A DNA stretch of 64,000 nucleotides from Shigella phage Sf25. The notes below the pieces were generated by a model. It made no database searches, was not told the origin of the DNA, and worked only from the letters and a program-made list of their open reading frames with translations. The stretch lies in the sequence record MF327009, one strand, 5' to 3'. Every line of letters begins with the position of its first letter. The first letter of the stretch is position 1. Position numbers and translations under genes: made by a program. Shown here one piece after another: positions 384 to 50,160 of the stretch.

Positions 384-2897
384 TCATAATTTACAGGATG
401 AACAATCTTCAGCTTTTGGAGTTTCTATTTCATAATCATCAGTACCAGAACCGTCACGGGTATTATGATAATAGAAATTTTTTCCGCCAAAATACCAAAA
501 ATATAAAAGGTCATCAATCATTATTGACATTGGAACCTTTCCTTTTGGAAAAATCTGCGGGTCATAATATGTATTAGCTGAAGCTGATTGACATACCCAT
601 TTCAGCATAATAGCTACTTGCGTAAGATAAGGTTTATTGCCTTTCTTAGCTAATTTCCACGTATAATCATAGAGGTCTATGTTATGCTCAATATTGGGCA
701 CGACTTGATTAAAGGAACCCTCTTTTGATTCTTTAACAGAGACTGGTCCACGTGGAGGCTCGATACCGTTTGTACTGTTAGAAACTTGGGAAGATGACTC
801 ACATGGCATAAGTGCTGATAATGTGCTATTACGGATGCCAAAGAGCTTAAGGTCTTCCCGCAGCGACGACCAGTCACAAACGTATTTTGGAGCTGCGATT
901 TGGTCAATCTTTTTATTGTACCAGTCGATAGGTAATTCGCCTCGAGACCAACGAGTGTCTGAATAATATTCGCAAGGTCCTTTTTCTTTGGCGAGCTTAA
1001 TGGATGCTTTAATGAGTCCATACTGTAATCTCTCAAATAGTTCATGTGTTAAATCGTTAGCATCTTCATAAGAAGCAAAATTACTTGCCAGCCAAGCTGC
1101 ATAGTTAGTAACACCTACACCAAGATTTCGACGCTTTTTAGCTTTTTCTGCTTCAGGAACTGGATATCCTTGGTAATCCAAAAGATTATCAAGAGCACGA
1201 ACTTGGACTTCTGCCAATTCATTAATTTTATCTTGGTCTTGCCAATCAAAGTTATCTAACACAAATGCAGATAACGTACACAATCCAATTTCAGCATCAG
1301 GACTATTCACATCATTTGTTGGAATAGCAATTTCACAGCACAAGTTGCTCTGACGAATAGGTGCCTTTTCACGAATAAACGGAGTATAGTTATTCGTATT
1401 ATCTATGAACTGTACATAAATCCTTGCTGTTCCTGAGCGTTCAGTCATGAGCAATTCAAATAGTTCACGGGCTTTAATACGCTTTTTACGAATATTAGGG
1501 TCTTTTTCTGCTGCTTCGTATAATTCACGGAAACGGTCTTGGTCTTTAAAATAAGAATAATAAAGCTCGCCACCCATTTCATGCGGACTGAACAAAGTAA
1601 TGTAATCGTTCTTTCCGAATCGTTCCATCATCAAATCATTCAGCTGAACACCATAATCCATATGACGGATACGGTTTTCTTCTACACCTTTGTTATTTTT
1701 CAAAACGAGAAGATTTTCAACTTCCAAATGCCAAATAGGATAATAAGCAGTAGCAGCGCCGCCACGAATTCCACCCTGTGAGCATGATTTAACAGCAGTC
1801 TGAAAATGTTTCCAAAAAGGAATAACACCAGTATGGCGTACTTCACCTGTGCCAATCTTAGAACCTTCGGCACGAATCATACCAACGTTAATACCAATTC
1901 CATAATCCATATGACGGATACGGTTTTCTTCTACACCTTTGTTATTTTTCAAAACGAGAAGATTTTCAACTTCCAAATGCCAAATAGGATAATAAGCAGT
2001 AGCAGCGCCGCCACGAATTCCACCCTGTGAGCATGATTTAACAGCAGTCTGAAAATGTTTCCAAAAAGGAATAACACCAGTATGGCGTACTTCACCTGTG
2101 CCAATCTTAGAACCTTCGGCACGAATCATACCAACGTTAATACCAATTCCAGCGCGTTTGGAGATATATTCAACAATTGAAGCAGAAGCCTTATTGATAG
2201 ACTTTAATGAATCACCTGCTTCAATAACAACGCATGAACTAAACTGCCGAGTTGGAGTACGGCAACCAGCCATAATAGGAGTTGGCAGTGAAATCTGTCG
2301 AGTAGATACTGCTTCATAAAAACGGATAACGTGTTTTAATCTATCAACAGGTTCATCTTGATGCAATGCCATTCCAATAGTCATAAATGCAAACTGTGGA
2401 GTTTCATAAATTTGACCAGTGGTTTTATCTTTAACTAGATATTTTTCTTTTAATTGCATCGCCCCGGAATAAGTAAATTCCATATCCCGCTCGTGCTTAA
2501 TTTTTGATTCTAAAAATGTAATTTCTTCGGCAGAATATTTTGACAACAATTCAGGGTCATATTTACCTTCATTTACACAGTAAGAAATGTGGTCAATAAA
2601 TGAACGTGGTTCATACTGCCCATAAACATGCTTACGAAGAGCGAACATTAAACAGCGTGCAGCTACATATTGATAATCAGGCTCTTCAACTGAAATAGAA
2701 TTCGCAGCAGCCTTAATTACAATGGTTTGAATGTCATCAGTTGTCATTCCATCACGGAGATATGATTTAATATTTTCATATAATTCATAAGGATCTACAG
2801 ATGTTCCTTCAGCTGCCCAAGATAAAACTTTAATAATTTTTTGCGGGTCAAAGCTCTGAGAAACACCACTACTTTTGATAACATTAATTAATTGCAT
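384..2897 (-). CDS. nrdA: Aerobic ribonucleotide reductase large subunit NrdA; 837 aa including an 83-aa in-frame internal tandem duplication
   Basis: ORF track 837 aa; class I RNR alpha sequence; peptide GIGINVGMIRAEGSKIGTGEVRHTGVIPFWKHF...ENRIRHMDY occurs twice in tandem. Confidence 0.9.
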   Translation of the reverse strand: MQLINVIKSSGVSQSFDPQKIIKVLSWAAEGTSVDPYELYENIKSYLRDGMTTDDIQTIVIKAAANSISVEEPDYQYVAARCLMFALRKHVYGQYEPRSFIDHISYCVNEGKYDPELLSKYSAEEITFLESKIKHERDMEFTYSGAMQLKEKYLVKDKTTGQIYETPQFAFMTIGMALHQDEPVDRLKHVIRFYEAVSTRQISLPTPIMAGCRTPTRQFSSCVVIEAGDSLKSINKASASIVEYISKRAGIGINVGMIRAEGSKIGTGEVRHTGVIPFWKHFQTAVKSCSQGGIRGGAATAYYPIWHLEVENLLVLKNNKGVEENRIRHMDYGIGINVGMIRAEGSKIGTGEVRHTGVIPFWKHFQTAVKSCSQGGIRGGAATAYYPIWHLEVENLLVLKNNKGVEENRIRHMDYGVQLNDLMMERFGKNDYITLFSPHEMGGELYYSYFKDQDRFRELYEAAEKDPNIRKKRIKARELFELLMTERSGTARIYVQFIDNTNNYTPFIREKAPIRQSNLCCEIAIPTNDVNSPDAEIGLCTLSAFVLDNFDWQDQDKINELAEVQVRALDNLLDYQGYPVPEAEKAKKRRNLGVGVTNYAAWLASNFASYEDANDLTHELFERLQYGLIKASIKLAKEKGPCEYYSDTRWSRGELPIDWYNKKIDQIAAPKYVCDWSSLREDLKLFGIRNSTLSALMPCESSSQVSNSTNGIEPPRGPVSVKESKEGSFNQVVPNIEHNIDLYDYTWKLAKKGNKPYLTQVAIMLKWVCQSASANTYYDPQIFPKGKVPMSIMIDDLLYFWYFGGKNFYYHNTRDGSGTDDYEIETPKAEDCSSCKL
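1651..2148. repeat. Exact direct tandem duplication, 2 x 249 bp, inside nrdA (boundaries ambiguous by about 3 nt)
   Basis: Sequence beginning cataatccatatgacggatacggttttcttc recurs at 1652 and 1901 with no mismatch seen by eye. Confidence 0.9.
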
Positions 2898-2915
2898 AAG
2901 TCCTCAACTTGAAAA

Positions 2916-3271
2916 TCGTCTTTAAACAATCGGTTAACTATATGAGCTATTATATCACCATGACACGGCTTTGGTTTACATGTGCATCCTAGCCTCATTC
3001 CACGTAAAGGCTCTAAATGTGCTTTAGTTATTTCTCCGGATTTAATTCGACGTATAAAATCTTTTTTGAATAATTCAATGGCAGCCTCCCGGCTCGTCTT
3101 TAAACAATCGGTTAACTATATGAGCTATTATATCACCATGACACGGCTTTGGTTTACATGTGCATCCTAGCCTCATTCCACGTAAAGGCTCTAAATGTGC
3201 TTTAGTTATTTCTCCGGATTTAATTCGACGTATAAAATCTTTTTTGAATAATTCAATGGCAGCCTCCCGGC
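2916..3271. repeat. Exact direct tandem duplication, 2 x 178 bp, spanning the 3' end of a small ORF just upstream of the nrdA start
   Basis: cgtctttaaacaatcggttaactatatgagc... recurs at 2917 and 3095. Confidence 0.9.
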
Positions 3272-3392
3272 TGCCAGCATCTTTACCGACGTAATTTCCC
3301 CAAAATGTACCACGGTGAATATTAACATCAAAGTCGGATTTATATTTATTCACTACCCGGCATAGACGGCCCGCGCGGTTGTAGGTGTTCAT
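3075..3392 (-). CDS. Hypothetical protein (Cys/His-containing); C-terminus altered by the 178-bp duplication
   Basis: ORF track 105 aa; in the duplicated copy the frame ends ...[11 protein letters not shown], while a single-copy reading would give ...RLFKDDFQVEDLCN overlapping the nrdA ATG. Confidence 0.5.
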
Positions 3393-3609
3393 ATTGTTCT
3401 TCCGTTAAAACAGTAATATCGTAGTAACAGTCAGAAGAAGTTTTAACTGTGGAAATTTTATTATCAAAATACTCACGAGTCATTTTATGAGTATAGTATT
3501 TTTTACCATAAATGGTAATAGGCTGTTCTGGTCCTGGAACTTCTAACTCGCTTGGGTTAGGAAGTGTAAAAAGAACGGCACCAGAAGTATCTTTAAATCG
3601 TAAAATCAT
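3346..3609 (-). CDS. Hypothetical protein
   Basis: ORF track 87 aa; stop overlaps neighbouring ORF; start overlaps td stop (ATGA-type coupling). Confidence 0.5.
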
Positions 3610-4466
3610 ATTGCCATTTTCCCTTTAATTGCTGGATGCGATTCATAATTTTCAAGGATAAAATCTTTCGGTTTCATGTATTCAGTTAACCAGTAAAGCT
3701 GTGTTTCGGTGTCACAATTTCCAAACTCTATAGGCCAATCAATTTTAAGTTCACACAGTTCTTTAGGCTCACGACGTAAAATTTCTTTACATTGCTCAGT
3801 ATGATTCATATAGATGTGAGTATTACCACCAGAAAATATCAAATCTCCTGGGATAAGATTACACATCTTAGCCACAATATGCGTCAAGGCAGCGTACGAG
3901 GCAATGTTGAATGGCAAGCCCAAGAAAACATCTACACTTCTTTGGTACCATTGTAAATCAAGATAACCATTACGCACATTAAACTGATAGAACATATGAC
4001 AGGGCGGTAATGCCATTTGATTGATTTCAGCTGGATTCCATGCTGAAACGATTTGACGTCGATCAGTTGGTAATTTTTTAATACGATCAATAGTTTCAAC
4101 TAATTGATCCACACCACCGAAATCACGCCATTGTTTACCGTATATAGGACCAAGTTCACCACTATGATATCCTAGGTCTTTAGCTTGGTTTTCATAATTG
4201 TCATCCCAGATAGTTTTACCTTGAATAAGACTACCGTGAGTAAGAAGACGTAAATCATTAACATTGGTAGAACCGGAAATAAACCATAAAAGCTCAGCAA
4301 TGCATGCATTCCAGGCGAGCTTCTTAGTTGTTACTGCAGGAAAACCTTTGGTTAAATCCCATCGTAATTTAGTACCGAACAAAGCAATTGTTCCTGTGCC
4401 CGTTCGGTCATCGGTTTCATAGCCATTTTCAAAAATGTCTTTAATTAAATCTTGGTATTGTTTCAT
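3606..4466 (-). CDS. td: Thymidylate synthase, uninterrupted (no group I intron)
   Basis: 286 aa; ThyA motifs including the PPCH catalytic-Cys region; contiguous ORF. Confidence 0.93.
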
Positions 4467-6412: not shown

Positions 6413-6441
6413 TAGTATCACACTACTACCCTTCTGTAAAC
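6413..6441 (-). promoter_or_regulatory. Putative sigma70-type early promoter (GTTTACA -35 / TACTAT -10, 17-bp spacer)
   Basis: Reverse complement reads GTTTACA...TACTAT upstream of ORF 6060..6302. Confidence 0.35.
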
Positions 6442-6887
6442 TACTTTTTGAAAGTTTTTCGCAAAAGTTCAATGATTTCATCTACATTGTTTTCGTCAAC
6501 AATGCAGTGAATTTTTGTTACGCCAGAAACCTTGTCTATGACTTCATCTACATTGTTTTCGTCAACAATGCAGTGAATTTTTGTTACGCCAGAAACCTTG
6601 TCTTTGACTTCATCTTCTTCAGAAGTCGGTTCTTTATACTCACGAAAACAATGAAATTCATCTTCGCAAATTTCTAAAAGTCTATCTTTGAGGTAAAAAT
6701 GCTTTCCATTTGCGCATTCAATGTGTTTTACTGCTTTATATCCATTAGCGACGGAAACTTCTTTAACTTCAAACCATCCGCCATTATCTCGAATAGCTTT
6801 AACGATTGATGAATTAGAACGTGGGCTATAATTAATAAATGTATCAATAAGTCTTGGAACAAGTTCATACTTTTTGCCAATATACAT
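6441..6887 (-). CDS. Hypothetical protein carrying an in-frame 22-aa tandem repeat
   Basis: ORF track 148 aa; DKVSGVTKIHCIVDENNVDE repeated. Confidence 0.55.
   Translation of the reverse strand: MYIGKKYELVPRLIDTFINYSPRSNSSIVKAIRDNGGWFEVKEVSVANGYKAVKHIECANGKHFYLKDRLLEICEDEFHCFREYKEPTSEEDEVKDKVSGVTKIHCIVDENNVDEVIDKVSGVTKIHCIVDENNVDEIIELLRKTFKK
6477..6608. repeat. Near-exact direct tandem duplication, 2 x 66 bp
   Basis: ttcatctacattgttttcgtcaacaatgcagtgaatttttgttacgccagaaaccttgtct occurs at 6477 and 6543. Confidence 0.85.
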
Positions 6888-8212: not shown

Positions 8213-8310
8213 TTTTATTTCCTTTTTAATTTAATTAACAGTTGGTGCTATGACGATGTATGACCTCATAGCTGGTCAGTGAGATAATTATAATCTATTT
8301 ATAATAAGCA
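8213..8310 (-). promoter_or_regulatory. Gene 32 5' control region: A/U-rich leader (candidate autoregulatory operator) plus overlapping late (TATAAATA, 8296-8303) and MotA-box-like middle promoter elements
   Basis: Minus strand reads TTGCTTATTATAAATAGATTATAAT ... AATTAAATTAAAAAGGAAATAAAAATG. Confidence 0.5.
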
Positions 8311-8311: not shown

Positions 8312-9136
8312 TTAATACTTGCAAGATTTCACAGTTTCAATAAAAACTTTTTTAGCTTCCTGTGAATCAATATTTAAAATTTTTCTATAAGCCTTTAACT
8401 TTATAGAATAATTATTCCAAACTAAATTATCAGTTTGTTGATCATGTTTATCAATTATATTTAAAAACGAATCAAGCAAGATAAACGTCTCAAACGAAAT
8501 TATGTTCGATTGCAGAAGTTTAAAAATATAACTTGACTGAACTTTTGGATTATACTCAAAAATTTCTTTAAAAGCAGAAACTTCAACTTTTTTACTAAAA
8601 TAATAAATGTTGCGAATATCTTCTTCAAACTTAAATTTAATTTGCTTTAAGCGTCCGATATATTCACGATAAAACACAAGTGCATCAGCGTCAGAGATGT
8701 CACCAATCCAAGCATCTTGGTTAGCAACCAAATTGCTTATAAAGATTAAAGCAAGTTCCTTTAATTTATATTTTTCTGATAACTTCTGGAAAAAATACTT
8801 ATCCCTTCGATTAGTTTTTTCACAACGAACAACAGAAGGACGTAAAAGATTTTCGTCGATAGCTTCTGACTGAATTTTTTCAATTATACCCGAAGGAATA
8901 AATTTAGCAAATTGAGTTTCAGGAATAGAATTTTCTTCTAAGAACGCTGTTGTAGCTTCAAGATAACTCATTCCAAACTCTTCTACCATTTTTTCAATAA
9001 TAAATCCATTTTCTTGGCGGTCAAGAAGCTTTGCTATTTCATCCTTTTCTTTCTTAATTGAAAGTTCTTTTTCTGAAAGACCGGTCTCATCGACCGGACG
9101 AATATCATTTAGAGAAAACTGTGTCATAAAGTTCAA
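8312..9136 (-). CDS. Apparent in-frame fusion ORF: acidic N-terminal part (gp33-like late transcription factor) joined to basic C-terminal part (gp59-like helicase loader)
   Basis: 274 aa; junction near 8806-8812 (...RCEKTN/RRDKYFFQ...); only one ORF between dsbA and gene 32 where T4 has two genes. Confidence 0.55.
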   Translation of the reverse strand: MNFMTQFSLNDIRPVDETGLSEKELSIKKEKDEIAKLLDRQENGFIIEKMVEEFGMSYLEATTAFLEENSIPETQFAKFIPSGIIEKIQSEAIDENLLRPSVVRCEKTNRRDKYFFQKLSEKYKLKELALIFISNLVANQDAWIGDISDADALVFYREYIGRLKQIKFKFEEDIRNIYYFSKKVEVSAFKEIFEYNPKVQSSYIFKLLQSNIISFETFILLDSFLNIIDKHDQQTDNLVWNNYSIKLKAYRKILNIDSQEAKKVFIETVKSCKY

Positions 9137-9374
9137 CTACCTCTTCAGTTTCAGCTTCAAACACATCACGGTTATCTTTATGATACAAAGCTAACAGACG
9201 ATTAAACATCTTACCATCAACGCCAAGTTCATCTTTGGCACGAATTCGAATATCTTTAATCAATTCATTATAACCAGAAATTTTCAGTTTATGATCAGAT
9301 GCTTCTTTAATAAATTTAGCTAAGTCTTCGCCATGGATAGCTTCATCAAATTCAACCATTTCTTTTTTAGCCAT
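9105..9374 (-). CDS. dsbA: dsDNA-binding protein DsbA (late transcription enhancer)
   Basis: 89 aa; position between rnh and gene 33. Confidence 0.75.
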   Translation of the reverse strand: MAKKEMVEFDEAIHGEDLAKFIKEASDHKLKISGYNELIKDIRIRAKDELGVDGKMFNRLLALYHKDNRDVFEAETEEVVELYDTVFSK

Positions 9375-9382
9375 TATTCACC

Positions 9383-10300
9383 TCAAAATTCATTAATGCT
9401 ATTAGTTAATTTAGAAAGACCCGCTTTTACAAAATATGAATAAATTTTGCCACGCGGTGGTAATTTATATGAATTATAGTAATTCACAATGTTTGAAGCA
9501 ATATTATCAGGAATATAATCAAAATCAATTAGAACTAAATTTTCTTTATAACGATTATATTCAGATTCAGTGAGAAGCACCTTAGCTTGCTCACGGTCAT
9601 TAGCAATAGCTTCAACAATAGAGGTTTTCATTGAAGGAGTTCGTTCACCTTCAACTCTAGTAAACCAAAAGTCAGACCGTACTTTAACTGAAGCAACGTT
9701 ATCCTTTTTGTCACCTTTAAGGATTTTAGTCATACAGTCAATTTCAGCAGAACCGCTTTTAATTTTAACCCATTTCTTGTGCATCGGTGACCATTGCTTA
9801 ACATTTGGGTATTTATGAAGTTGAGTAAAGTCACCATCCGATGAAATGATTAAAATCTTGTGTCCTTCTAAAGAGAACTTTTTAACAAGAACAGCAATAT
9901 GGTCATCTGCTTCATACTTATCAATATCCATAACAATGTATGGCATATAAGCTTTCAATTCATCTATAACTTTATGACTGGATTCAAAATAACCTTCCCA
10001 GTCCCAAGTAGATTCTTCTCGTGCTTTTCCACGGTTTTTCTTATAATAATAAGCAAAATCACGACGCCAATATCCAGATTTCGCGTTATCAATACACAAT
10101 ACAATTTTAGTGTATCCAAGAGCTTTTGCTTTTTTGACATTAAACTTAATTGAGTTCAATATCAAATGACGAACCATTGATAAATTAATTTTTTCTTTAT
10201 CTGGAAAGTTTACCAAAGCAGTTGAAAGCGCAATTTGACTAAAGTCAATTAAGCAGATTCCTTCTTTGTAATCTTCATCCAGCATCATTTCTAAATCCAT
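9383..10300 (-). CDS. rnh: RNase H (5'-3' exonuclease / flap endonuclease)
   Basis: FEN-family sequence; probable start MDLEMML at 10300 (305 aa) with GAGG RBS. Confidence 0.9.
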   Translation of the reverse strand: MDLEMMLDEDYKEGICLIDFSQIALSTALVNFPDKEKINLSMVRHLILNSIKFNVKKAKALGYTKIVLCIDNAKSGYWRRDFAYYYKKNRGKAREESTWDWEGYFESSHKVIDELKAYMPYIVMDIDKYEADDHIAVLVKKFSLEGHKILIISSDGDFTQLHKYPNVKQWSPMHKKWVKIKSGSAEIDCMTKILKGDKKDNVASVKVRSDFWFTRVEGERTPSMKTSIVEAIANDREQAKVLLTESEYNRYKENLVLIDFDYIPDNIASNIVNYYNSYKLPPRGKIYSYFVKAGLSKLTNSINEF

Positions 10301-10329
10301 ATGAACCTCGTTCAATTAGTGAGATTTCT

Positions 10330-10359
10330 ATTATATACCATCCGAATCTTAAAGTAAAC
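10330..10359 (-). promoter_or_regulatory. Putative early promoter for rnh (GTTTAC-N18-TATAAT)
   Basis: Reverse complement GTTTACTTTAAGATTCGGATGGTATATAAT. Confidence 0.5.
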
Positions 10360-10362
10360 AAG

Positions 10363-10370
10363 TATAAATA
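10363..10370 (+). promoter_or_regulatory. Late promoter TATAAATA for gene 34
   Basis: Exact TATAAATA about 35 nt upstream of the gene 34 ATG. Confidence 0.65.
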
Positions 10371-10404
10371 CTTATTATTGAAAACACAATAGGAGCCCGG
10401 GAGA

Positions 10405-13400
10405 ATGGCCGAGATTAAAAGAAAGTTCAGAGCAGAAGATGGTCTGGACGCAGGTGGTGATAAAATAATCAACGTAGCTTTAGCTGATCGTACCGTAGGA
10501 ACTGACGGTGTTAACGTTGATTACTTAATTCAAGAAAACACAGTTCAACAATATGATCCAACTCGTGGATATTTAAAAGATTTTGTAATCATTTATGATA
10601 ACCGCTTTTGGGCTGCTATAAATGATATTCCAAAACCGGCAGGAGCTTTTAATAGCGGACGCTGGAGAGCATTACGTACCGATGCTAACTGGATTACAGT
10701 CTCATCTGGTTCATATCAATTAAAATCTGGTGAAGCTATTTCGGTTAACACTGCAGCTGGTAATGATATTACATTTACTTTACCATCTACTCCAATTGAC
10801 GGTGATACTATCGTTCTCCAAGATATTGGAGGAAAACCTGGAGTTAACCAAGTTTTAATTGTAGCTCCAGTACAAAGTATTGTAAACTTTAGAGGTGAAC
10901 AGGTACGTTCAGTACTAATGACTCATCCAAAGTCACAGCTAGTTTTAATTTTTAGTAATCGTCTGTGGCAAATGTATGTTGCTGATTATAGTAGAGAAGC
11001 TATAGTTGTAACACCAGCAAGTCTCTATCAGGCGCAATCTAATGATTTTATCGTACGTAGATTTACTTCTGCTGCACCAATTAATGTTAAACTTCCAAGA
11101 TTTGCTAATCATGGCGATATTATTAATTTCGTTGATTTAGATAAACTGAATCCACTTTATCATACAATTGTTACTACATACGATGAAACGACTTCAGTAC
11201 AAGAAGTTGGAACTCATTCCATTGAAGGCCGTACATCGATTGACGGTTTCTTGATGTTTGATGATAATGAGAAATTGTGGAGATTGTTTGACGGGGATAG
11301 TAAAGCACGTTTACGTATCATAACGACTAATTCAAATATTCGTCCAAACGAAGAAGTTATGGTATTTGGTGCAAATAACGGAACAACTCAAACGATTGAG
11401 CTTCAGCTTCCAACTAATATTTCTGTTGGTGATACTGTTAAAATTTCCATGAATTACATGAGAAAAGGACAAACAGTTAAAATCAAAGCTGCAGGTGAAG
11501 ATAAAATTGCTTCTTCAGTTCAATTGCTGCAATTCCCAAAACGTTCAGAATATCCGCCTGAAGCTGAGTGGGTTACAGTTCAAGAATTAGTTTTTAACGG
11601 TGAAACTAATTATGTTCCAGTTTTACAGCTTGCTTATATAGAAGATTCTGATGGAAAATACTGGGTTGTACAGCAAAATGTTCCAACCGTAGAAAGAGTA
11701 GATTCTTTAAATGATTCTACTAGAGCAAGATTAGGCGTGATTGCTTTAGCTACACAAGCGCAAGCTAATGTCGATTTAGAAAATTCTCCGCAAAAAGAAT
11801 TAGCAATTACTCCAGAAACATTAGCTAACCGTACTGCTACAGAAACTCGTAGAGGTATCGCAAGAATAGCAACTACTGCTCAAGTGAATCAGAACACCAC
11901 ATTCTCTTTTGCTGATGATATTATCATTACTCCTAAAAAGCTGAATGAAAGAACTGCTACAGAAACTCGTAGAGGTGTTGCTGAAATTGCTACGCAACAG
12001 GAAACTAATGCAGGTACTGATGATACTACAATCATCACTCCTAAAAAGCTTCAAGCTCGACAAGGTTCTGAATCATTATCAGGTATTGTAACCTTTGTAT
12101 CTACCGCGGGAGCTACTCCAGCTTCTAGTCGTGAATTAAATGGTACAAACGTTTATAATAAAAACACTAATAATTTAGTTGTTTCGCCTAAAGCTCTAGA
12201 TCAGTATAAAGCTACTCCAACGCAGCAAGGTGCAGTAATTTTAGCAGTTGAAAGTGAAGTAATTGCTGGACAGAGCCAAGAAGGATGGGCAAATGCGGTT
12301 GTAACGCCAGAAACGTTACATAAAAAGACATCAACTGATGGAAGAATTGGATTAATTGAAATTGCTACACAGTCTGAAGTTAATACAGGAACTGATTATA
12401 CTCGTGCAGTCACTCCTAAAACTTTAAATGATCGTAAAGCAACTGAAAGTTTAAGTGGTATAGCAGAAATAGCAACACAAGTTGAATTCGACGCAGGCGT
12501 CGACGATACTCGTATCTCTACACCATTAAAAATTAAAACCAGATTTAATAGTACTGATCGTACTTCTGTTGTTGCTCTATCTGGATTAGTTGAATCAGGA
12601 ACTCTCTGGGACCATTATACCCTTAATATTCTTGAAGCAAATGAGACACAGCGTGGTACACTTCGTGTGGCTACACAAGTTGAAGCTGCTGCAGGAACAT
12701 TAGATAATGTTTTAATAACTCCTAAAAAGCTTTTAGGTACTAAATCTACCGAATCGCAGGAAGGTGTTATTAAAGTTGCAACACAAACTGAAACTGTTGC
12801 TGGTACATCATCTAATACTGCTGTATCTCCAAAGAATTTAAAATGGATCGTGCAGAGCGAACCTACTTGGGCAGCTACAACGGCTATAAGAGGATTTGTT
12901 AAAACTTCTTCTGGTTCTATTACTTTCGTTGGTAATGATACTGTTGGTTCAACACAACCTTTAGAATCATATGAAAAAAATAGCTATGCTATATCTCCAT
13001 ATGAATTAAACAGAGTATTAGCTAACTATTTACCATTAAAAGCCAAAGCAGTTGATAGTAATTTACTCGATGGTCTAGATTCACTCCAGTTCATTCGTAG
13101 GGACATCGCCCAGACAGTTAATGGATCACTAACCTTAACGCAACAAACGAATCTGAGTGCCCCTCTTGTATCATCTAGTACTGCTACGTTTGGTGGATCA
13201 GTTTCTGCTAATAGTACATTGACTATTTCTAACACAGGAACAGCTACTCGACTGATTTTTGAAAAAGGACCTCAGACTGGAACAAATCCGGCTCAAACGA
13301 TGACTATCAGAGTTTGGGGAAATGAGTTTGGAGGTGGTTCTGATACATCACGTTCAACTGTATTTGAAGTTGGTGATGAAACGTCTAATCACTTCTATTC

Positions 13401-14274
13401 GCAACGTAATAAAGCTGGTAATATTGTTTTCAGTATTAATGGTACTGTAATGCCAATAAATGTGAATGCTTCGGGTTCATTGAATGCTAATGGTGTTGCA
13501 ACATTTGGTAGTTCTGTTACTGCTAATGGTGAATTCATCAGTAAATCAGCAAATGCTTTTAGAGCAATAAATGGTGATTACGGATTCTTCATTCGTAATG
13601 ATGGTGGAAACACCTATTTCATGTTAACTGCTTCTGGTGATCAAACTGGTGGATTTAATGGATTAAGACCTTTAGCAATAAACAATACATCAGGTCAAGT
13701 TACAATCGGTGAAGGATTAATTGCAGCAAAAGGTGTTACGATAAATTCTGGTGGTTTGACTGTTAACTCGAGAATTCGTTCTCAAGGTTCTAAAACTGCT
13801 GATTTATATACTCGTGCTCCTACTGCTGATACAGTCGGATTCTGGTCAATTGACATTAATGATTCAGCTACATACAACCAATTCCCTGGTTATTTTAAAA
13901 TGGTTGAAAAAACTAATGAAGTGACTGGGCTTCCATACTTAGAACGTGGTGAAGAAGTTAAATCTCCTGGTACTTTGACTCAGTTTGGTAATACTCTTGA
14001 TTCACTTTACCAAGATTGGATTACTTATCCAATAACTCCTGAAGCACGTACAACCCGTTGGACACGTACTTGGCAGAAGAATAAAAATTCATGGTCAAGT
14101 TTTGTCCAAGTATTTGATGGTGGAAACCCTCCTCAACCTTCTGATATTGGTGCTTTACCTTCTGATAATGCAATAATCGGAAACTTGACAATAAGAGATT
14201 TCTTAAGGATTGGTAACGTCCGCATTATTCCAGATCCTGTGACTAAATCAGTTAAATTCGAGTGGATTGAATAA
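10405..14274 (+). CDS. 34: Long tail fibre proximal subunit gp34
   Basis: 1289 aa; internal imperfect TATETRRG repeats typical of the fibre shaft. Confidence 0.93.
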   Translation: MAEIKRKFRAEDGLDAGGDKIINVALADRTVGTDGVNVDYLIQENTVQQYDPTRGYLKDFVIIYDNRFWAAINDIPKPAGAFNSGRWRALRTDANWITVSSGSYQLKSGEAISVNTAAGNDITFTLPSTPIDGDTIVLQDIGGKPGVNQVLIVAPVQSIVNFRGEQVRSVLMTHPKSQLVLIFSNRLWQMYVADYSREAIVVTPASLYQAQSNDFIVRRFTSAAPINVKLPRFANHGDIINFVDLDKLNPLYHTIVTTYDETTSVQEVGTHSIEGRTSIDGFLMFDDNEKLWRLFDGDSKARLRIITTNSNIRPNEEVMVFGANNGTTQTIELQLPTNISVGDTVKISMNYMRKGQTVKIKAAGEDKIASSVQLLQFPKRSEYPPEAEWVTVQELVFNGETNYVPVLQLAYIEDSDGKYWVVQQNVPTVERVDSLNDSTRARLGVIALATQAQANVDLENSPQKELAITPETLANRTATETRRGIARIATTAQVNQNTTFSFADDIIITPKKLNERTATETRRGVAEIATQQETNAGTDDTTIITPKKLQARQGSESLSGIVTFVSTAGATPASSRELNGTNVYNKNTNNLVVSPKALDQYKATPTQQGAVILAVESEVIAGQSQEGWANAVVTPETLHKKTSTDGRIGLIEIATQSEVNTGTDYTRAVTPKTLNDRKATESLSGIAEIATQVEFDAGVDDTRISTPLKIKTRFNSTDRTSVVALSGLVESGTLWDHYTLNILEANETQRGTLRVATQVEAAAGTLDNVLITPKKLLGTKSTESQEGVIKVATQTETVAGTSSNTAVSPKNLKWIVQSEPTWAATTAIRGFVKTSSGSITFVGNDTVGSTQPLESYEKNSYAISPYELNRVLANYLPLKAKAVDSNLLDGLDSLQFIRRDIAQTVNGSLTLTQQTNLSAPLVSSSTATFGGSVSANSTLTISNTGTATRLIFEKGPQTGTNPAQTMTIRVWGNEFGGGSDTSRSTVFEVGDETSNHFYSQRNKAGNIVFSINGTVMPINVNASGSLNANGVATFGSSVTANGEFISKSANAFRAINGDYGFFIRNDGGNTYFMLTASGDQTGGFNGLRPLAINNTSGQVTIGEGLIAAKGVTINSGGLTVNSRIRSQGSKTADLYTRAPTADTVGFWSIDINDSATYNQFPGYFKMVEKTNEVTGLPYLERGEEVKSPGTLTQFGNTLDSLYQDWITYPITPEARTTRWTRTWQKNKNSWSSFVQVFDGGNPPQPSDIGALPSDNAIIGNLTIRDFLRIGNVRIIPDPVTKSVKFEWIE

Positions 14275-14282
14275 GAGGTATT

Positions 14283-15398
14283 ATGGAAAAATTTATGGCA
14301 GAGTTTGGACAAGGATATGTCCAAACTCCATTTTTATCGGAAAGCAATTCAGTAAGATATAAAATAAGTATAGCGGGTTCTTGCCCGCTTTCTACTGCAG
14401 GGCCTTATGTTAAATTTCAAGATAATCCTATTGGAAGTCAAACATTTAATGCAGGTCTTCATTTGAGAGTTTTTGATCCTACATCAGGGGCGTTAGTCGA
14501 TAGTAAATCATATGCATTTTCATCATCTAACGATACGACATCAGCTGCTTTTATTGATTTTATGAATTCAATTTCATCTAATAGAATAGTTGCTATATTA
14601 ACAAGTGGAAAAGTTAATTTCCCTCCTGAAGTAGTTTCTTGGTTAAGAACAGCAGGAACATCTGCTTTTCCATCTGATGCTATATTATCTAGATTTGATG
14701 TTTCATACGCAGCTTTTTACACTTCAGTAAAACGGGCAATCGCGTTAGAACACGTTAAATTAAGTAATAGAAAAAGCACAGATGATTATCAAACTATACT
14801 AGATGTAGTATTTGATAGCATAGAAGATGTTGGAGCAACAGGTTTTCCAAAAAGAACTTATGAAAGCGTTGAACAATTTATGTCAGCAGTTGGTGGAACA
14901 AATAATGAAATAGCGCGTTTACCTACTTCAGCCGCAATAAGTAAACTTTCTGACTACAATTTAATTCCTGGCGATGTTCTTTATCTTAAAGCACAGTTAT
15001 ATGCTGACGCAGATTTATTAGCATTAGGAACTACTAATATTTCAATTCGTTTTTATAACTCATCAAACGGATATATTTCTTCAACCCAAGCTGAATTTAC
15101 AGGACAGGCTGGATCTTGGGAATTAAAAGAGGATTATGTGGTTGTTCCAGAAAATGCAGTTGGATTTACGATATATGCACAGAGAACTGCTCAAGCAGGA
15201 CAAGGCGGCATGCGAAATTTAAGCTTTTCTGAAGTATCAAGAAATGGTGGAATTTCAAAACCCGCCGAGTTTGGTGTTAATGGTATTAGAGTTAATTATG
15301 TCTGTGAATCTGCTTCACCTCCTGATATAATGGTACTTCCAACACAATCGTCTACAAATACTGGAAAAGTTTTTGGACAAGAATTTAGAGAAGTTTAA
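14283..15398 (+). CDS. 35: Long tail fibre hinge (knee) protein gp35
   Basis: 371 aa; position and size. Confidence 0.85.
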   Translation: MEKFMAEFGQGYVQTPFLSESNSVRYKISIAGSCPLSTAGPYVKFQDNPIGSQTFNAGLHLRVFDPTSGALVDSKSYAFSSSNDTTSAAFIDFMNSISSNRIVAILTSGKVNFPPEVVSWLRTAGTSAFPSDAILSRFDVSYAAFYTSVKRAIALEHVKLSNRKSTDDYQTILDVVFDSIEDVGATGFPKRTYESVEQFMSAVGGTNNEIARLPTSAAISKLSDYNLIPGDVLYLKAQLYADADLLALGTTNISIRFYNSSNGYISSTQAEFTGQAGSWELKEDYVVVPENAVGFTIYAQRTAQAGQGGMRNLSFSEVSRNGGISKPAEFGVNGIRVNYVCESASPPDIMVLPTQSSTNTGKVFGQEFREV

Positions 15399-15403
15399 AC
15401 TGA

Positions 15404-15430
15404 GGGAGCCTTCGGGTTCCCTTTTTCTTT
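15404..15430 (+). terminator. Intrinsic terminator or processing hairpin with UUCG tetraloop between 35 and 36
   Basis: GGGAGCC-TTCG-GGTTCCC followed by TTTTTCTTT. Confidence 0.6.
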
Positions 15431-15437
15431 ATAAATA
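15430..15437 (+). promoter_or_regulatory. Late promoter TATAAATA for gene 36
   Basis: Exact TATAAATA 24 nt upstream of the gene 36 ATG. Confidence 0.65.
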
Positions 15438-15460
15438 CTATTAAAATAAAGGGGCATACA

Positions 15461-16126
15461 ATGGCTGATTTAAAAGTAGGTTCAACAACTGGAGGCTCTG
15501 TCATTTGGCATCAAGGAAATTTTCCATTGAATCCAGCCGGTGACGATGTACTCTATAAATCATTTAAAATATATACAGAATATAATAAACCACAAGCAGC
15601 TGATAACGATTTCGTTTCTAAAGCTAATGGTGGTACTTACGCTTCAAAGGTAACATTTAACGGTGGCGTGCAAATACCATATGCTATAAACAATACAAAC
15701 CAAAGCGGTATTTTTCCTGGTAATGGTGATGCTGCTACTTTTGCTACAGCAAATATTGATATTGTTTCATGGTATGGCATTGGTTTTAAATCATCACAAG
15801 GATCTGCAGGTAGAACTGTAGTAATTAATGCACGTAATGGCGATATTAGCACAAAAGGCGTTGTATCTGCTTCAGGACAAGTAAGAAGCGATATGACTGC
15901 TCCAGTTGCAGCAAATGATCTCACAAGAAAAGATTATGTTGATGGAGCAATAAATATTGTTACGGATAACGCAAATTCACGTGTATTGCGTAGAGGCGAT
16001 ACTATGACTGGAAATTTAACAGCTCCAAACTTTTTCTCACAGAATCCAGCGTCTCAACCTTCACATGTTCCACGATTTGATCAAATTGTTATTAAGGATT
16101 CTGTTCAAGATTTCGGCTATTATTAA
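15461..16126 (+). CDS. 36: Long tail fibre distal connector gp36
   Basis: 221 aa. Confidence 0.88.
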   Translation: MADLKVGSTTGGSVIWHQGNFPLNPAGDDVLYKSFKIYTEYNKPQAADNDFVSKANGGTYASKVTFNGGVQIPYAINNTNQSGIFPGNGDAATFATANIDIVSWYGIGFKSSQGSAGRTVVINARNGDISTKGVVSASGQVRSDMTAPVAANDLTRKDYVDGAINIVTDNANSRVLRRGDTMTGNLTAPNFFSQNPASQPSHVPRFDQIVIKDSVQDFGYY

Positions 16127-16134
16127 GAGGACTT

Positions 16135-19100
16135 ATGGCTACTTTAAAACAAATACAATTTAAAAGAAGCAAAACTGCAGGTCAACGTCCTGCTGCTTCA
16201 GTATTAGCCGAAGGTGAATTGGCTATAAACTTAAAAGACCGTACTCTTTTTACTAAAGATGACTCGGGAAATATTATTGATTTAAGCATTTCTGCCGGTG
16301 GTAACATTAGTGGAAATATCACTCAAAATGGTGATTATTTACAAAACGGCACGTATAATCTTAATGGAAATCAGTTTGTTTATGCAGGAAAGTATATTGA
16401 ATTCTTGCCAAAAACTGCTGGAAATGGTGCTTGGGCAAATCAGCACACAAATAAAGCTCCAATTTTCACCGATTTGAGTTCAACTACTTCAACTTCTGAA
16501 TATCATCCGCTAATTAAACAACGTTATAAAGATGGAACGTTTTCATTAGGGACTTTAGTTTCTGAAGGCTCAATGAAGATACACTATATCGATGAAACTG
16601 GCACTTCAAAATATTGGACTTTCCGACGTGATGGTGGTTTTGTTGTTGATAGTGGTAGTTTAACTGTTACTGCTGGAAACATATCTGCTTCAGGCAATAT
16701 TAATTCGGCATCAGGGGTTGTTTCAGCTCCTCAAATTAATACAAAAACCATTGTTTTAGATACAAAAGCATTTGGACAATATGATTCGCAGTCATTAGTT
16801 CAGTATGTTTATCCTGGCACTGGCGAAACAAACGGTATAAACTATCTTCGTAAAGTTCGCGCAAAATCAGGTGGTACAATTTATCATGAAATAGCTTCAG
16901 CTCAAAGTGGAAAAAGCGATGAAATTTCGTGGTGGACTGGAAATACAGCCGTTAATAAACAAATGGGTCTTCGTAATGATGGTGCAATGGTATTACGTCG
17001 TTCACTTGCTATTGGCACAATTACTACAGATGAAAACGTAAATAACTATGGATCTGCTGGAGCAATGGGAGAAAAATACATTGTTCTTGGAGATGCGTCA
17101 ACTGGACTAGCTTATAAAAAGACAGGAGTTTATGACTTAGTTGGTAGTGGTTTATCTGTTGCTTCTATCACTCCCGACAGTTTTCGTAGTACCCGTAAAG
17201 CAATTTTTGGACGTTCTGAAGACCAAGGCGGTACATGGCTTCTTCCTGGTCAAAACGCTGCTCTTCTTTCAGTTCGTACAGATATTGATCAAAATAATAA
17301 CGGTGATGGTCAAACTCATATTGGATATAATAGTAACAGCAAGTTTTATCATTATTTTAGAGGCAGAGGCCGAATGGCTGTTGGAATGGCTGAAGGTCTT
17401 ATTGTTGAGCCTGGAATTTTAGATATTAAAACTGGTTCAAATACTGTTTCTATTAGAGCTGATGGCGGAATTTCATCTACTCAGCGTCTTTCATTGCAGA
17501 ATGGTATATTTTTATCTTCTGACGGAAATAACAACGGTATATCGTTTAAAGCTTCTAGCAGTATAGATGGAACTAAAACTCTTAATTGGGATGCTGGTAC
17601 TCGTGCAGGTCAAAACAAAAATACAGTAATTTTAAAAGCATGGGGAAATTCATTTAATACAAGTGGTGGAACTGATAGACATACTGTATTTGAAGTTTCT
17701 GATTCGCAAGGATACTACTTTTATGCTCAACGTACTACCCCTGCATCCGGTCAAACAGTAGGTCCTATTAATTTTAAATTTAATGGTACTGTAGAAACCG
17801 GTCATATCAATGGATTAGGTAATATTACTTTATCTGGGGCAGTTATAGCAGATTCTGCTAATATTAAAGGACCGCTAAAAATATCTAATGCTAATACAGC
17901 TGATGCTTTTAGAATATGGAACGCTGAATATGGAGCCATTTTCCGTCGTTCAGAAACATCATTGCATATTATTCCTACACTTAAAGATGCAGGGGAAAAT
18001 GGTGGAATAAGTAATCTTCGCCCATTAAGTATTGATCTTTCAAACGGATTTGTGCAAATGCATCATTCTCTTTCTGTGGGGAATACAGTAAGAACGAATG
18101 GATTGTTTGCTGTGGATACTTCAGCTGCTCTTGTTGCAATTAACAGATGTTCCTATTGTGAAACAAAGATACGTTCAAGGGAATAGCACCTATTCATTAG
18201 GTACTTTAATTAATGGTGGTGATTTCCGTTTACATTACCATGAAGGCGGTGACAGTTCTTCAACAGGTGCAGTTATAAAAGATATTTCCTGGGAATTTAA
18301 ACGTAATGGTGATTTCTATTCGCCAGGTCGTTTACGTACAGGAAATATCTATATTGGAACTGATGGTAATATCACGGGTGGTTCTGGTAACTTTGCTAAC
18401 TTGAATACAACTTTAAACCGTAAAGTTAATTCTGGTTTTATTACTTATGGAGCAACTGCAGGTTGGTACAAGTTTGCAACAGTAACAATGCCTCAAGCTA
18501 CATCAACCGTTTCAATTACAGTCACTGGCGGAAATGGATTTAATTCTGGATCATTTAATCAGTGTGCAATTTCTGAAATTGTTCTTCGTACAGGAAACAA
18601 TAATCCTCTGGTGATACATATGACATTTATGTTAATATGGGAACATATGCTAATCAGTTGATATTTAACTATAGTTCTGTTGATAATGCCACAGTTCAAA
18701 TTATTGGCGCATTCAGTTCAGCTCAAAATCCTGTTGATGCATTGCCAGAAACATATGTTAAAGGTCAGGTAGCAGATGTATTGACTAACTTAGTTGATTC
18801 TGGAAAAACGAAGCGTTTTGTTGCTGAATCTGAAATAGCTATTAATAATCAAACTGGATTACGTATTACGAGTAATGGTGATAAATCTGGTTCAAATTCA
18901 GTATTATTCAGAAATGATGGATCAGCGTTTTATATTCTTTTAACAGATAAAAACGCAGCAGATGGAAATACGACTGCCACAGAAGGAGATTGGAATGGTA
19001 AACGTCCTTTCCAAATTAATATGACTTCTGGTGAAGTAACATTCGGAAATAATATTAATATTTCTGGAAACGGAAGCATTACTTGGACAAAAGCCGGAGC

Positions 19101-19770
19101 AAACCCTAGAAATATGAGAATATTTCATGCAGGTGATGCTTCTCGTGGTAACCGTATTGAAATCGCAGATGATACTAATTATATTGCTTACTTTGAAAAA
19201 ACTCCAGGTGGAGCTAACCGCTTTGTAGTTAATGGTGCTACTGTAGCTGGTGTTAATCAAATGAATTCATTTGGTATTAACATCAATAACGCGCTTGGTG
19301 GAAATAGTATAGCATTTGGTGATAATGACACGGGTATTAAGCAAAACGGCGATGGATTATTAGACATTTATGCGAATGGTGTGCAAACGTTCCGTTTCCA
19401 AAACGGTGATTTGTACTCATATAAAAATATAAATGCCCCAAACGTTTATATTCGTTCTGATATTCGCTTAAAATCTAATTTCAAACCTATCGAAAATGCA
19501 CTTGATAAAGTTGAAAAACTCAATGGTGTCATTTATGATAAAGCTGAATATATCGGTGGAGAGGCAATTGAAACTGAAGCGGGTATTGTGGCTCAAACGT
19601 TACAAGACGTTTTACCAGAAGCCGTCCGTGAAACAGAAGACAGCAAGGGTAATAAAATACTCACTGTTTCTTCTCAAGCCCAGATTGCTCTTCTGGTTGA
19701 AGCTGTGAAAACGCTTTCTTCTCGTGTAAAAGAACTTGAATCTAAACTTCTTGAATCTAAACTTATGTAA
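16135..19770 (+). pseudogene. 37: Long tail fibre distal subunit gp37 (T2-type with C-terminal intramolecular chaperone domain), interrupted by two frame changes (frame 1, +1, frame 1)
   Basis: Three ORF-track pieces 16135..18186, 18098..18661, 18637..19770, each with fibre-like sequence; C-terminus ...IRSDIRLKSNFKPIENALDKVEKLNGVIYDK. Confidence 0.6.
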
Positions 19771-19800: not shown

Positions 19801-20498
19801 ATGGCAATTGTAGGTGTTCCTGGCTGGATTGGTGAATCTGCCGTGAATGAAACAGGACAGCGTTGGATGGATGCTGCAATGAGAGCAGTCCGTGTTTCAG
19901 TTCCCGGTTGGATGAGCTCAATGGCCGGACAATCTAAAGAAGTATATTATAGCATTGGTGCTAGTAATTCTTATAATAAAGATACATTAATAAACTGAAT
20001 GCATACGTGACACTTAATATCAATTCAGGCGTGCATGTTTGGGGCCGTGGCGGGAATGGCGGAAATAACTCTGCCGGTGGAGCAGGAGGAACTGCAATAA
20101 ATAATGGAATTGGAACTAGATTGCGTATTAACAACAATGGTGTTATCGCAGGAGGCGGTGGCGGCGGTGGAGGCGGATATTATTCTCCTTTTTCACAAAT
20201 GAAATTGACTTTTGGCGGTGGCGGCGGTCGTCCATTTGGTGCTGCTGGCGGGTCTGCTAATATGGAACAGGGCGCTACTGCTGGTACTATTTCTGCACCT
20301 GGTAAAGGGTCTGTCAATGGTATCTATAATGGCGGGAATGGCGGTGATGCTGGTGCCGCAGGTGGTAAATGTAATATTCGTGGGCAAGGATCAGAATATA
20401 ACGGCGGTGCGGCCGGTAAAGCTGTTACTGGTAATGCTCCAACTTGGACTAAGGTTGGTACAATATATGGCCCTCTGATATTCTATTTGGTGTTCTAG
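19801..20498 (+). pseudogene. 38: Receptor-recognising adhesin gp38 (T2-type, glycine-rich motifs), split into two reading frames
   Basis: N-terminal 65-aa ORF (MAIVGVPGWIG...) ends at a stop at 19996-19998; the glycine-rich part (GGGGGGGGYY...) follows in another frame from 20007. Confidence 0.55.
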
Positions 20499-20503
20499 AT
20501 CGC

Positions 20504-21100
20504 TTGTTCAAAGATAACGCTACCGGGAAAGTTCTTGCTTCCCGGGTAGCTGTCGTAATTCTTTTATTTATGATGGCGATTGTTTGGTATAGGGGAGATA
20601 GTTTCTTTGAGTACTATAAGCAATCAAAGTATGAAACATACAGTGAAATTATTGAAAAGGAAAGAAATGCACGCTTTGAATCTGTCGCCCTGGAACAACT
20701 CCAGATAGTTCATATATCATCTGAGGCAGACTTTAGTGCGGTGTATTCTTTCCGCCCTAAAAACTTAAACTATTTTGTTGATATTATAGCATACGAAGGA
20801 AGATTACCTTCAACAATAACTGAAAAATCACTTGGAGGATATCCTGTTGATAAAACTATGGATGAATATATAGTTCATTTAAATGGACGTCATTATTATT
20901 CTGACTCAAAATTTGCTTTTTTACCAACTAAAAAGCCTACTCCCGAAATAAACTACATGTACAGTTGTCCATATTTTAATTTGGATAATATCTATGCTGG
21001 AACGATAACCATGTACTGGTATAGAAATGATCATATAAGTAATGACCGCCTTGAATCAATATGTGCTCAGGCGGCCAGAATATTAGGAAGGGCTAAATAA
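20504..21100 (+). CDS. t: Holin T, lacking the conserved N-terminal residues
   Basis: 198 aa from an internal Met (MFKDNATGKVLASRVAVVILLF...); SDILFGVLDRL is encoded upstream in frame but has no start codon and is preceded by an in-frame TAA. Confidence 0.8.
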   Translation: MFKDNATGKVLASRVAVVILLFMMAIVWYRGDSFFEYYKQSKYETYSEIIEKERNARFESVALEQLQIVHISSEADFSAVYSFRPKNLNYFVDIIAYEGRLPSTITEKSLGGYPVDKTMDEYIVHLNGRHYYSDSKFAFLPTKKPTPEINYMYSCPYFNLDNIYAGTITMYWYRNDHISNDRLESICAQAARILGRAK

Positions 21101-21373
21101 TTATTTGTTTGTATACATCTCTAGATATCGATATACACCCTCAAAACCCTCGTTGAATTCGTCGATGAGGGTTTTCTTATCTTCTTGAGTTAATTCAGAA
21201 ACAATTTTACGGAATGAATTCTGATTTAATTTTCTACCTTCATGCGTTACTCCAATCTCATTCAAAAATGCAATAAAATTAGCACGATTTTCAACAATAT
21301 CTTCTCTGGAAAATTTAATCAAAATAGACGCAACAGTAATAATTTCACGAACTGTATCAATGTTTTTATTCAT
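21101..21373 (-). CDS. asiA: Anti-sigma70 factor AsiA
   Basis: 90 aa MNKNIDTVREIITVASILIKFSRED... Confidence 0.9.
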   Translation of the reverse strand: MNKNIDTVREIITVASILIKFSREDIVENRANFIAFLNEIGVTHEGRKLNQNSFRKIVSELTQEDKKTLIDEFNEGFEGVYRYLEMYTNK

Positions 21374-21534
21374 TAACTATACCACTCAATTAGTTGACTT
21401 TGTTATAATATCATCAGACGCTTGATTTGTAAACTGGTCTGTGTTATTTTCTTCAAAAATTTTTTCTACGAATTCCTTGAACGACTCGCGTTCCTGAGCT
21501 ACATTATGCTCGATTACCTTTTCAAGATTATGAC

Positions 21535-21813
21535 TCATTCGAAATAATCTTCAATTTCGTAATCATGGACGTAAATCATTATAGTTTTTAATACATCATC
21601 AATACTTTTTCCTGGAGCTGGAATTACGTAAAAATATCCTGCTTTTGAGAGGTCTTTATAAGTTCCAATCAAGAAATCATTATTCTCAAGATGTAGTTCT
21701 TCAACTAATTCATTAACAATTGAGTGGTATAAATTTGGTAGAAACTTATATAGCTTTTCTAGAATATCAATTTTGATTGTATATTGAACCACGGACTGAG
21801 AATCAATAATCAT
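21535..21813 (-). CDS. arn: Putative anti-restriction protein Arn
   Basis: 92 aa; position between asiA and motA. Confidence 0.5.
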   Translation of the reverse strand: MIIDSQSVVQYTIKIDILEKLYKFLPNLYHSIVNELVEELHLENNDFLIGTYKDLSKAGYFYVIPAPGKSIDDVLKTIMIYVHDYEIEDYFE

Positions 21814-21896
21814 AGACCTTCCCCTTATGTTTCTGTTTGCGATTAGATTCTTTAAACGCTTTCTTCTTATCTTTATGAACAGAAGCTTTATTAAAA

Positions 21897-22115
21897 TTAT
21901 GTTTTGCGACTAAATTGTTCATAGTGCTGAATTACCTCTCTTAAACATTTGCATGTGAATGAAAACTTTTTAGCTACACCACATTCAAATATATGTTCTC
22001 TTAAATCGCGTGTATCGGTATATCCCATCTCAACAATAAAGTGCCTTATCAGATTTTTATCTTTATCATTCAGAGAGTTAAAATAATCAGATTTTGAATT
22101 AATTTCCCTGGCCAA
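21897..22115 (-). CDS. Hypothetical protein
   Basis: ORF track 72 aa. Confidence 0.45.
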   Translation of the reverse strand: MAREINSKSDYFNSLNDKDKNLIRHFIVEMGYTDTRDLREHIFECGVAKKFSFTCKCLREVIQHYEQFSRKT

Positions 22116-22395
22116 ATTGAATCACCTTCAGTTGACGTTTTAATTCTTTTATCATTTCTTCGTTCATCGCAATATAAAGATCGCGTAAAGCAGGTTTTAG
22201 CATGTCATTTATTATAGAACTAAATGGACACACATAATCTTTTCCTACAAGCTTTTTGGTGAATTCCATATCACAGAACTTAAATCCCGGCTCATTGGCA
22301 TAAATTCCCCAATTAGTTGACATCATTTTATTAGCATATTCCAGTGCCTGGATTTGATTCATAATTCCATCAATTTGAAACTTTTTAATATTCAT
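22099..22395 (-). CDS. Hypothetical protein
   Basis: ORF track 98 aa. Confidence 0.5.
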   Translation of the reverse strand: MNIKKFQIDGIMNQIQALEYANKMMSTNWGIYANEPGFKFCDMEFTKKLVGKDYVCPFSSIINDMLKPALRDLYIAMNEEMIKELKRQLKVIQFGQGN

Positions 22396-22856
22396 TAGTA
22401 AAGGTCCTCAGAGTAAAGTTCTTTTTCACTACCACCACGTTCAATACGTACTTGTCCAGCGTAAGTTGCAATAATCATTGCTTCTTCACGTGTCCAATAA
22501 TTACTATATTGGTCAATAAACCCTTGGTCATCATCACAAACTTGTTGAGTAACTAATTGAGGTTTAACTACATCTAAAACTTCTGCCATATCTTTAGAAT
22601 AATGACGAGCACCTGGAATAATAAGAGTTCGTCCATCTTTTAATTTAAAACGGTTGGCTGCACAGACAATTCGTCGTTGATACTTTTGGTTTTCATCCCA
22701 ATATGCAGGCTGCCAACAGATTTCAGGAACTTCTTTCAGAATATCTTCTTCTGTGCATTTATAACCATGCGCTTTAAATTTTTCAACAAGACTTTCTGGA
22801 GTTTCACGAGATAAAGGAACATTCAGCATTTTTAAACGATTAATAAATGGGTTCAT
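22395..22856 (-). CDS. Hypothetical protein
   Basis: ORF track 153 aa. Confidence 0.5.
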
Positions 22857-23182
22857 TTAAACCATCCTTTAATACGTTGCCACAAAGTTTTCTGCTGAGC
22901 TTTGTTAACACCAATTGAACGAATAACCGGTTGAGATTCCTGGAATTCTTTATAATCGGCAAGGTAAATTTCGTAAGCTGCATCCGTAAATGAACTTATC
23001 GCTGCCATAAAATTATTGCGAATACCTACTGGAGCATCTTTACTTTCACGAATAATCATGTATTTACCAGTCTTAATCTTTACGATAGTTCCAAGATAAG
23101 CTCCGTGGTACCAAATATCCCAACCCTCTTGAGTAGGTTCTGCGCAACGACGAAGTTCATTAACAATTTCTAACTTGTTCAT
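22853..23182 (-). CDS. Hypothetical protein
   Basis: ORF track 109 aa. Confidence 0.5.
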
Positions 23183-23192
23183 TATTTATTCC

Positions 23193-23828: not shown

Positions 23829-23869
23829 TTTCTAATCTCCGTAATTCTGTATCAGTAGTTGATAGTTGT

Positions 23870-23899
23870 ATAGTACCACAGTATGCTTTGGTTGTAAAC
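23870..23899 (-). promoter_or_regulatory. Putative early promoter for motA (GTTTAC-N18-TACTAT)
   Basis: Reverse complement GTTTACAACCAAAGCATACTGTGGTACTAT with A/T-rich upstream tract. Confidence 0.5.
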
Positions 23900-23919
23900 C
23901 GTTTTGTGAAAAAATTTTT

Positions 23920-23950
23920 GAAATAAAAAAGGGAGAGCCGAGGCTCTCCC
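23920..23950 (-). terminator. Intrinsic terminator
   Basis: Minus-strand GGGAGAGC-loop-GCTCTCCC hairpin followed by TTTTTTATTTC. Confidence 0.65.
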
Positions 23951-23955
23951 TAAAA

Positions 23956-25430: not shown

Positions 25431-25434
25431 AAAT

Positions 25435-46353: not shown

Positions 46354-47693
<1,340 letters not shown>

Positions 47694-50158: not shown

Positions 50159-50160
50159 AG

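Follow-up and report, generated by a model that had tools for sequence, protein, structure and literature searches.

The sequence of Shigella phage Sf25 (record MF327009) contains, in the 64,000-nucleotide stretch analysed here and referred to as the window, a perfect 178-bp tandem duplication at positions 2916-3271 that alters the C-terminus of the small gene nrdA.1 directly upstream of nrdA. We conclude, with a probability of about 0.9, that this repeat is an error of sequence construction and not a feature of the phage. With the same high confidence, we take the true locus to be the single-copy td – nrdA.2 – nrdA.1 – nrdA arrangement of a Tequatrovirus, encoding an NrdA.1 of 108 aa. The repeat is one of seven perfect tandem duplications in the window, and a biological reading of the whole is untenable because these seven, together with a set of clean deletions, break essential genes.

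A perfect tandem repeat adjoining nrdA

The two copies (2916-3093 and 3094-3271) lie adjacent and head to tail, with a unit of 178 bp and 100% identity. Tandem Repeats Finder reports the repeat at 2916-3272 (period 178, 2.0 copies, 100% matches, no indels, score 714), a second repeat finder returns the same two copies at 100% identity, and an exact-match scan of the 178-bp repeat gives a run of 179, such that one extra base is common beyond the unit. The three methods agree, and they bear out the duplication described in an earlier note made from the DNA letters, which had also stated correctly that the unit length is not a multiple of 3 and that the repeat adjoins nrdA. A perfect adjacent repeat of 178 bases cannot have arisen by chance.

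All of the genes at the locus are on the minus strand, and the features are as follows.

3606-4466, minus strand: td
3346-3609, minus strand: nrdA.2 (DUF5496)
3075-3392, minus strand: nrdA.1 as written, 105 aa, DUF4326; the last six residues, EPGGCH, are the product of the junction frameshift
3094-3271: copy 2 of the unit, an in-frame part of nrdA.1; junction at 3093/3094
2916-3093: copy 1 of the unit (nrdA side); its minus strand reads as an orphan 3′ part of nrdA.1 that lacks a start codon
2888-2915, minus strand: native end of nrdA.1, codons for DFQVEDLCN followed by TAA at 2888-2890, severed from the open reading frame by the duplication
384-2897, minus strand: nrdA, 837 aa (754 aa in relatives), with ATG at 2895-2897 and Shine-Dalgarno GAGGA at 2901-2905

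A search for regulatory signals gave weak sigma-70-like matches only and no terminator, and no MotA-box-like TGCTT was found by eye on the coding strand of the unit.

Consequences for nrdA.1 and nrdA

The affected gene is an ordinary NrdA.1/DUF4326 member. Pfam PF14216 (DUF4326) matches residues 11-90 of the nrdA.1 open reading frame (E=4.6e-22, 78.9 bits against a cut-off of 25), and its neighbours nrdA.2 (DUF5496) and nrdA are those expected for NrdA.1. Like the NrdA.1 proteins of T4-like phages (RB14 ACP30872.1; Sf24 gp80 AUV63090.1), it is encoded between nrdA.2 and nrdA and has a C-x-C-x4-C-H motif; unlike them, it has a six-residue frameshift end, and a 178-bp orphan copy lies between the gene and nrdA. 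DUF4326 is predicted to be rhodanese-phosphatase-like and to act on the phosphates of ADP-ribose derivatives (PMC9503650; PMC7824862), and the published statements on its function that were found are all predictions.

As written, the native last nine residues of NrdA.1 are replaced by six frameshift residues, and collapsing the repeat to one copy converts the 105-aa product ending KDEPGGCH to one of 108 aa ending KDDFQVEDLCN. The changed C-terminus proposed in the earlier note is therefore confirmed. Residues 15-99 of the window product are identical to those of six relatives, and across all six aligned relatives residues 15-108 are identical, including an invariant DFQVEDLCN tail.

Two details of the earlier reading require revision. 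The stop codon of the single-copy gene had been said to overlap the nrdA ATG; it is instead located 5 nt downstream of it, with the single-copy nrdA.1 and nrdA reading frames overlapping by 10 nt, an arrangement seen only after one copy is removed. The idea that the duplication supplies an extra copy of the nrdA leader goes too far, as neither the ATG of nrdA nor its ribosome-binding site is duplicated: the unit runs from -19 to -196 relative to the ATG, leaving both ATG and GAGGA outside, and what is duplicated is internal nrdA.1 coding sequence. The extended nrdA product (837 aa against 754 aa) has a different source, namely a 249-bp duplication of nrdA's own. Because the DUF4326 domain, nrdA and the nrdA ribosome-binding site are all left intact, the 178-bp event on its own would be compatible with viability.

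The locus is single-copy in relatives

The window derives from a T4-like phage (Tequatrovirus), whose closest record is Shigella phage Sf24, with 98.2% identity over the first 25 kb. Among the best 30 records matching positions 2300-4000, 29 span 1523 bp relative to the 1701-bp query, which is one unit less, and alignment with RB14 and TB37 shows the 178-bp unit to be single-copy in both. An identical Td protein was found in five contigs, and each of the four that reach the locus encodes a 108-aa DUF4326 gene and a 754-aa NrdA; relatives with the identical Td allele are single-copy at 96-98% identity to the window. Look-ups of exact protein matches to the 105-aa product and to the intact NrdA.2 allele gave no hit. 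The comparison with T-even references that the earlier note had proposed as a check thus argues against a real event, with some 30 listed relatives and all of the fetched loci having one copy.

The junction itself is equally absent. A 50-nt query centred on 3093/3094, which seeds only on the junction-spanning 28-mer, has no match in 50,697 phage records, and as a positive control 496 phage records match the two halves of the same query. IMG/VR, JGI metagenomes and GTDB genomes all lack a 40-mer across the junction, and the corresponding native boundary 40-mer, again a positive control, is present in five IMG/VR contigs. Independent recovery of the 3093/3094 junction in other isolates is therefore nil in the collections searched.

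These results bear directly on whether T-even phages have a natural and established polymorphism in the length of nrdA.1. Nothing beyond the repeat itself speaks for a polymorphism; the two copies are 100% identical, the junction occurs in no phage record, and NrdA.1 residues 15-108 are the same in six relatives. The junction search and the six-relative alignment refute it within the collections searched, and we regard its probability as next to negligible.

A genuine and very recent tandem duplication, arising by illegitimate recombination or by template switching during T4 replication, would be another biological account. It would swap the last nine residues of NrdA.1 for six new ones and end translation 178 nt before the nrdA start, so that translation of nrdA would no longer be coupled to that of nrdA.1. 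It accords with established T4 genetics, in which tandem duplications are known to form, for example in rII, with the fact that neither the DUF4326 domain nor the start signals of nrdA are affected, and with the single perfect duplications carried by deposited relatives. Against it are the absence of the junction from every collection searched and the destruction of a tail that is invariant in six relatives. The breakpoints are also not of the usual kind. In T4, short direct repeats are typically the sites of the unequal exchange that forms tandem duplications and deletions; the window repeat resembles the classical T4 duplications in being a head-to-tail repeat of a unique segment, but the short direct repeats at their endpoints are missing here, with one base common at the breakpoints.

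Six further duplications in the window

Counting the 178-bp repeat, the 64 kb of the window contain seven perfect tandem duplications with units of 114-249 bp, and all seven units are single-copy in Sf24. By comparison, only two perfect tandem repeats were found in approximately 250 kb of related loci. The other six are listed here.

1651-2151: nrdA, perfect 249-bp tandem duplication, in frame, 83 aa
30631-31130: rIIA, perfect 249-bp tandem duplication giving an 83-aa repeat (808 aa against 725 aa)
42811-43226: modA.2, perfect 208-bp tandem duplication of modA.2 and spacer, adjoining modB
45699-46187: gene 56 (dCTPase), perfect 244-bp duplication with a frameshift that splits the gene into 122-aa and 161-aa reading frames
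54767-54994: gene 42 (dCMP hydroxymethylase), perfect 114-bp duplication giving a 38-aa repeat (284 aa against 246 aa)
58837-59131: gene 43 (DNA polymerase), perfect 147-bp duplication (947 aa against 898 aa)

The gene 43 repeat is of a 49-aa N-terminal exonuclease stretch that includes ...NCDIEV.... At the seven breakpoints 0-3 bases are common, with a mean of 1.1, relative to 0.8 expected for breakpoints placed at random, and the duplication breakpoints look random.

Clean deletions

There are also five or six clean deletions of 71-173 bp, which are absent from every comparator available for the site in question.

8809/8810: approximately 170-173 bp missing; gene 33, lacking its C-terminus, is fused to gene 59, lacking its N-terminus, in a 274-aa reading frame
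18146/18147: 173 bp missing in gene 37, a probable deletion, since the sole usable comparator is Sf24 and this is divergent on the right side
20469/20470: 71 bp missing, so that gene 38 loses its end and the holin gene t its start
26624/26625: approximately 129 bp missing at ndd.2a/ndd.4
41990/41991: 156 bp missing inside modA (148 aa against 200 aa)
60190/60191: 139 bp missing, with a frameshift in gene 62 (clamp loader; 127 aa against 187 aa)

The segment missing at 8809/8810 is present in all four comparators. Ten further junctions, from six duplications and four deletions, were used as queries, and none is present in any phage record.

Gene 37 (distal long tail fibre; 16135-19770) is represented by three reading frames of 683, 187 and 377 aa, compared to a single gene of 1287 aa in Sf24. 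The first break follows the 173-bp gap at 18146/18147, and the second is located in a divergent stretch.

Viability of the sequence as written

Genes 56, 62, 33/59, t, 38 and 37 are disrupted as written, and gp43, gp42, NrdA and rIIA contain internal repeats. Established T4 genetics shows that genes 56, 62, 33, 43, 42, 37 and t are required for growth, and we infer from the disruptions seen in the sequence that a phage with all of these lesions would be unable to replicate. This weighs heavily on the proposal that the 178-bp repeat is a genuine duplication. The repeat is accompanied by some 12 events of a similar kind, which cannot all be real and of which several would be lethal, and with frameshifted genes 56 and 62, a 33-59 fusion and a truncated holin, the sequence does not read as that of a replicating genome. 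A genuine duplication of 178 bp is accordingly very unlikely.

A more elaborate biological proposal is that the 178-bp event, and perhaps others, are real, and that the phage or its population undergoes homology-independent duplications and deletions of 70-250 bp at a high rate. We consider this very improbable. If true, an aberrant topoisomerase or an end-joining activity would be a possible source, and the nrdA.1 event would be a viable example of uncoupling nrdA translation from that of nrdA.1.

Origin of the repeat

An error of sequence construction would account for the repeats and the deletions together. The copies of the 178-bp repeat are identical, the junction is absent from other genomes of the lineage in the collections searched, and errors in the same style that break conserved genes accompany it. 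Most probably, overlapping pieces were joined with the overlap left untrimmed, which would yield perfect tandem repeats with random endpoints, and if pieces separated by a gap were joined directly, clean deletions would be produced. Deliberate in-silico edits would be an alternative cause leaving the same pattern. The cause is thus likely to be either untrimmed and gapped joins or in-silico editing, for which the pattern in the sequence is alike. The maximum duplication length of 249 bp (249 bp twice and 244 bp once) would fit reads of approximately 250 nt and manual joining.

Some considerations count against an artefact. Assemblers ordinarily merge perfect overlaps of 114-249 bp, and the 178-bp event is mild when taken by itself. 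Deposited records of T-even phages also include perfect tandem duplications, of 79 bp in TB37 and of 265 bp in Sf24, so that a real 178-bp event is conceivable in principle.

Another account holds that minority molecules – from heterogeneity of the lysate or from chimeric library molecules – were taken into the consensus by the assembler. This would explain a novel junction with some read support, and a mixed sample would be compatible with the mosaic pattern of identity to Sf24 along the window. However, the event would need to have occurred about 13 times in 64 kb, and the link between breakpoints and shifts in identity is weak (P approximately 0.06), with the shifts some 250 nt away. We find this account extremely doubtful. 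The related proposal that the breakpoints are seams between the contigs of two different phages is not relied on here: the change in Sf24 identity is larger at breakpoints than at random positions, but only with this weak signal, and mismatch maps place the shifts away from the breakpoints by the distance given above. An error in joining or editing the sequence remains our preferred explanation of the 178-bp repeat.

Perfect repeats in TB37 and Sf24

In TB37 (OZ035850.1) there is a perfect 79-bp tandem duplication at 139579-139737, across the nrdA start codon, and the record annotates its product, TB37_187, as a 'hypothetical protein' of 30 aa; the 96 kb of TB37 scanned contain no second perfect repeat. 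Sf24 (MF327008.1) has a perfect 265-bp tandem duplication at approximately 92090-92619, which is annotated as the similar genes gp121 and gp122 and of which the window has one copy. Both resemble the window repeats in being perfect and head to tail, with little or no shared sequence at their ends, and in being absent from relatives. They differ in that there is one repeat each in the scanned parts of TB37 (96 kb) and Sf24 (68 kb), with no essential gene broken. One repeat per genome would be expected from an untrimmed overlap at the point of circularization, and the TB37 and Sf24 repeats may be artefacts of the same kind that have been annotated as genes.

The TB37 repeat is only 60 bp away from the position of the 178-bp repeat, and we considered whether this indicates a hotspot. 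This was rejected as ranking bias and coincidence: TB37 was ranked first because its extra copy raised the BLAST score, and with approximately 500 T-even records one such coincidence is expected in a 1.7-kb query.

Implications for annotation

The importance of these observations is mainly in quality control. Annotation of the sequence as it stands would yield false proteins, including an NrdA.1 of 105 aa with a spurious tail, an NrdA of 837 aa, a DNA polymerase of 947 aa, a dCTPase in two pieces and a fusion of genes 33 and 59, and also false 'paralogues'. The same caution applies to findings at the repeats starting at 1651, 30631, 42811, 45699, 54767 and 58837, to those at the junctions at 8810, 18147, 20470, 26625, 41991 and 60191, and to any finding in the window for which a perfect tandem repeat or an unusual gene length is the basis.

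Other variation in the window

Identity to Sf24 is uneven along the window, with blocks of 99.2-99.9% (8810-18146, 20470-25630, 45943-54200 and 60191-64000) alternating with regions of 93-97%; the block at 20470-25630 is at the lower end of the former range, with 99.2%. This alternation either is mosaicism of the kind usual in T-even phages or points to a mixed sample. A stretch free of mismatches to Sf24 begins approximately 248 nt before each of two clean deletions (8562-8809 and 20223-20469), which may be tied to read length or be due to chance.

The window lacks the segG homing-endonuclease gene that Sf24 has between genes 32 and 59 (8276-8310), and, unlike MW749000.1, it also lacks a mobE-like gene between nrdA and nrdB. 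Both absences look like normal presence/absence variation.

Finally, frd.2 (6441-6887, minus strand) contains a 66-bp in-frame tandem repeat at 6472-6615 with one mismatch (6476/6542), and the predicted Frd.2 product has 148 aa compared to 120-126 aa in relatives. The best phage records, Sf24, TB37 and four other fetched loci, MW749000.1 among them, have the unit in single copy. In contrast to the seven perfect repeats, this one is flanked by native 11/12-nt direct repeats (TGAyTTCATCT), and because it sits between these it could be a genuine product of slippage.
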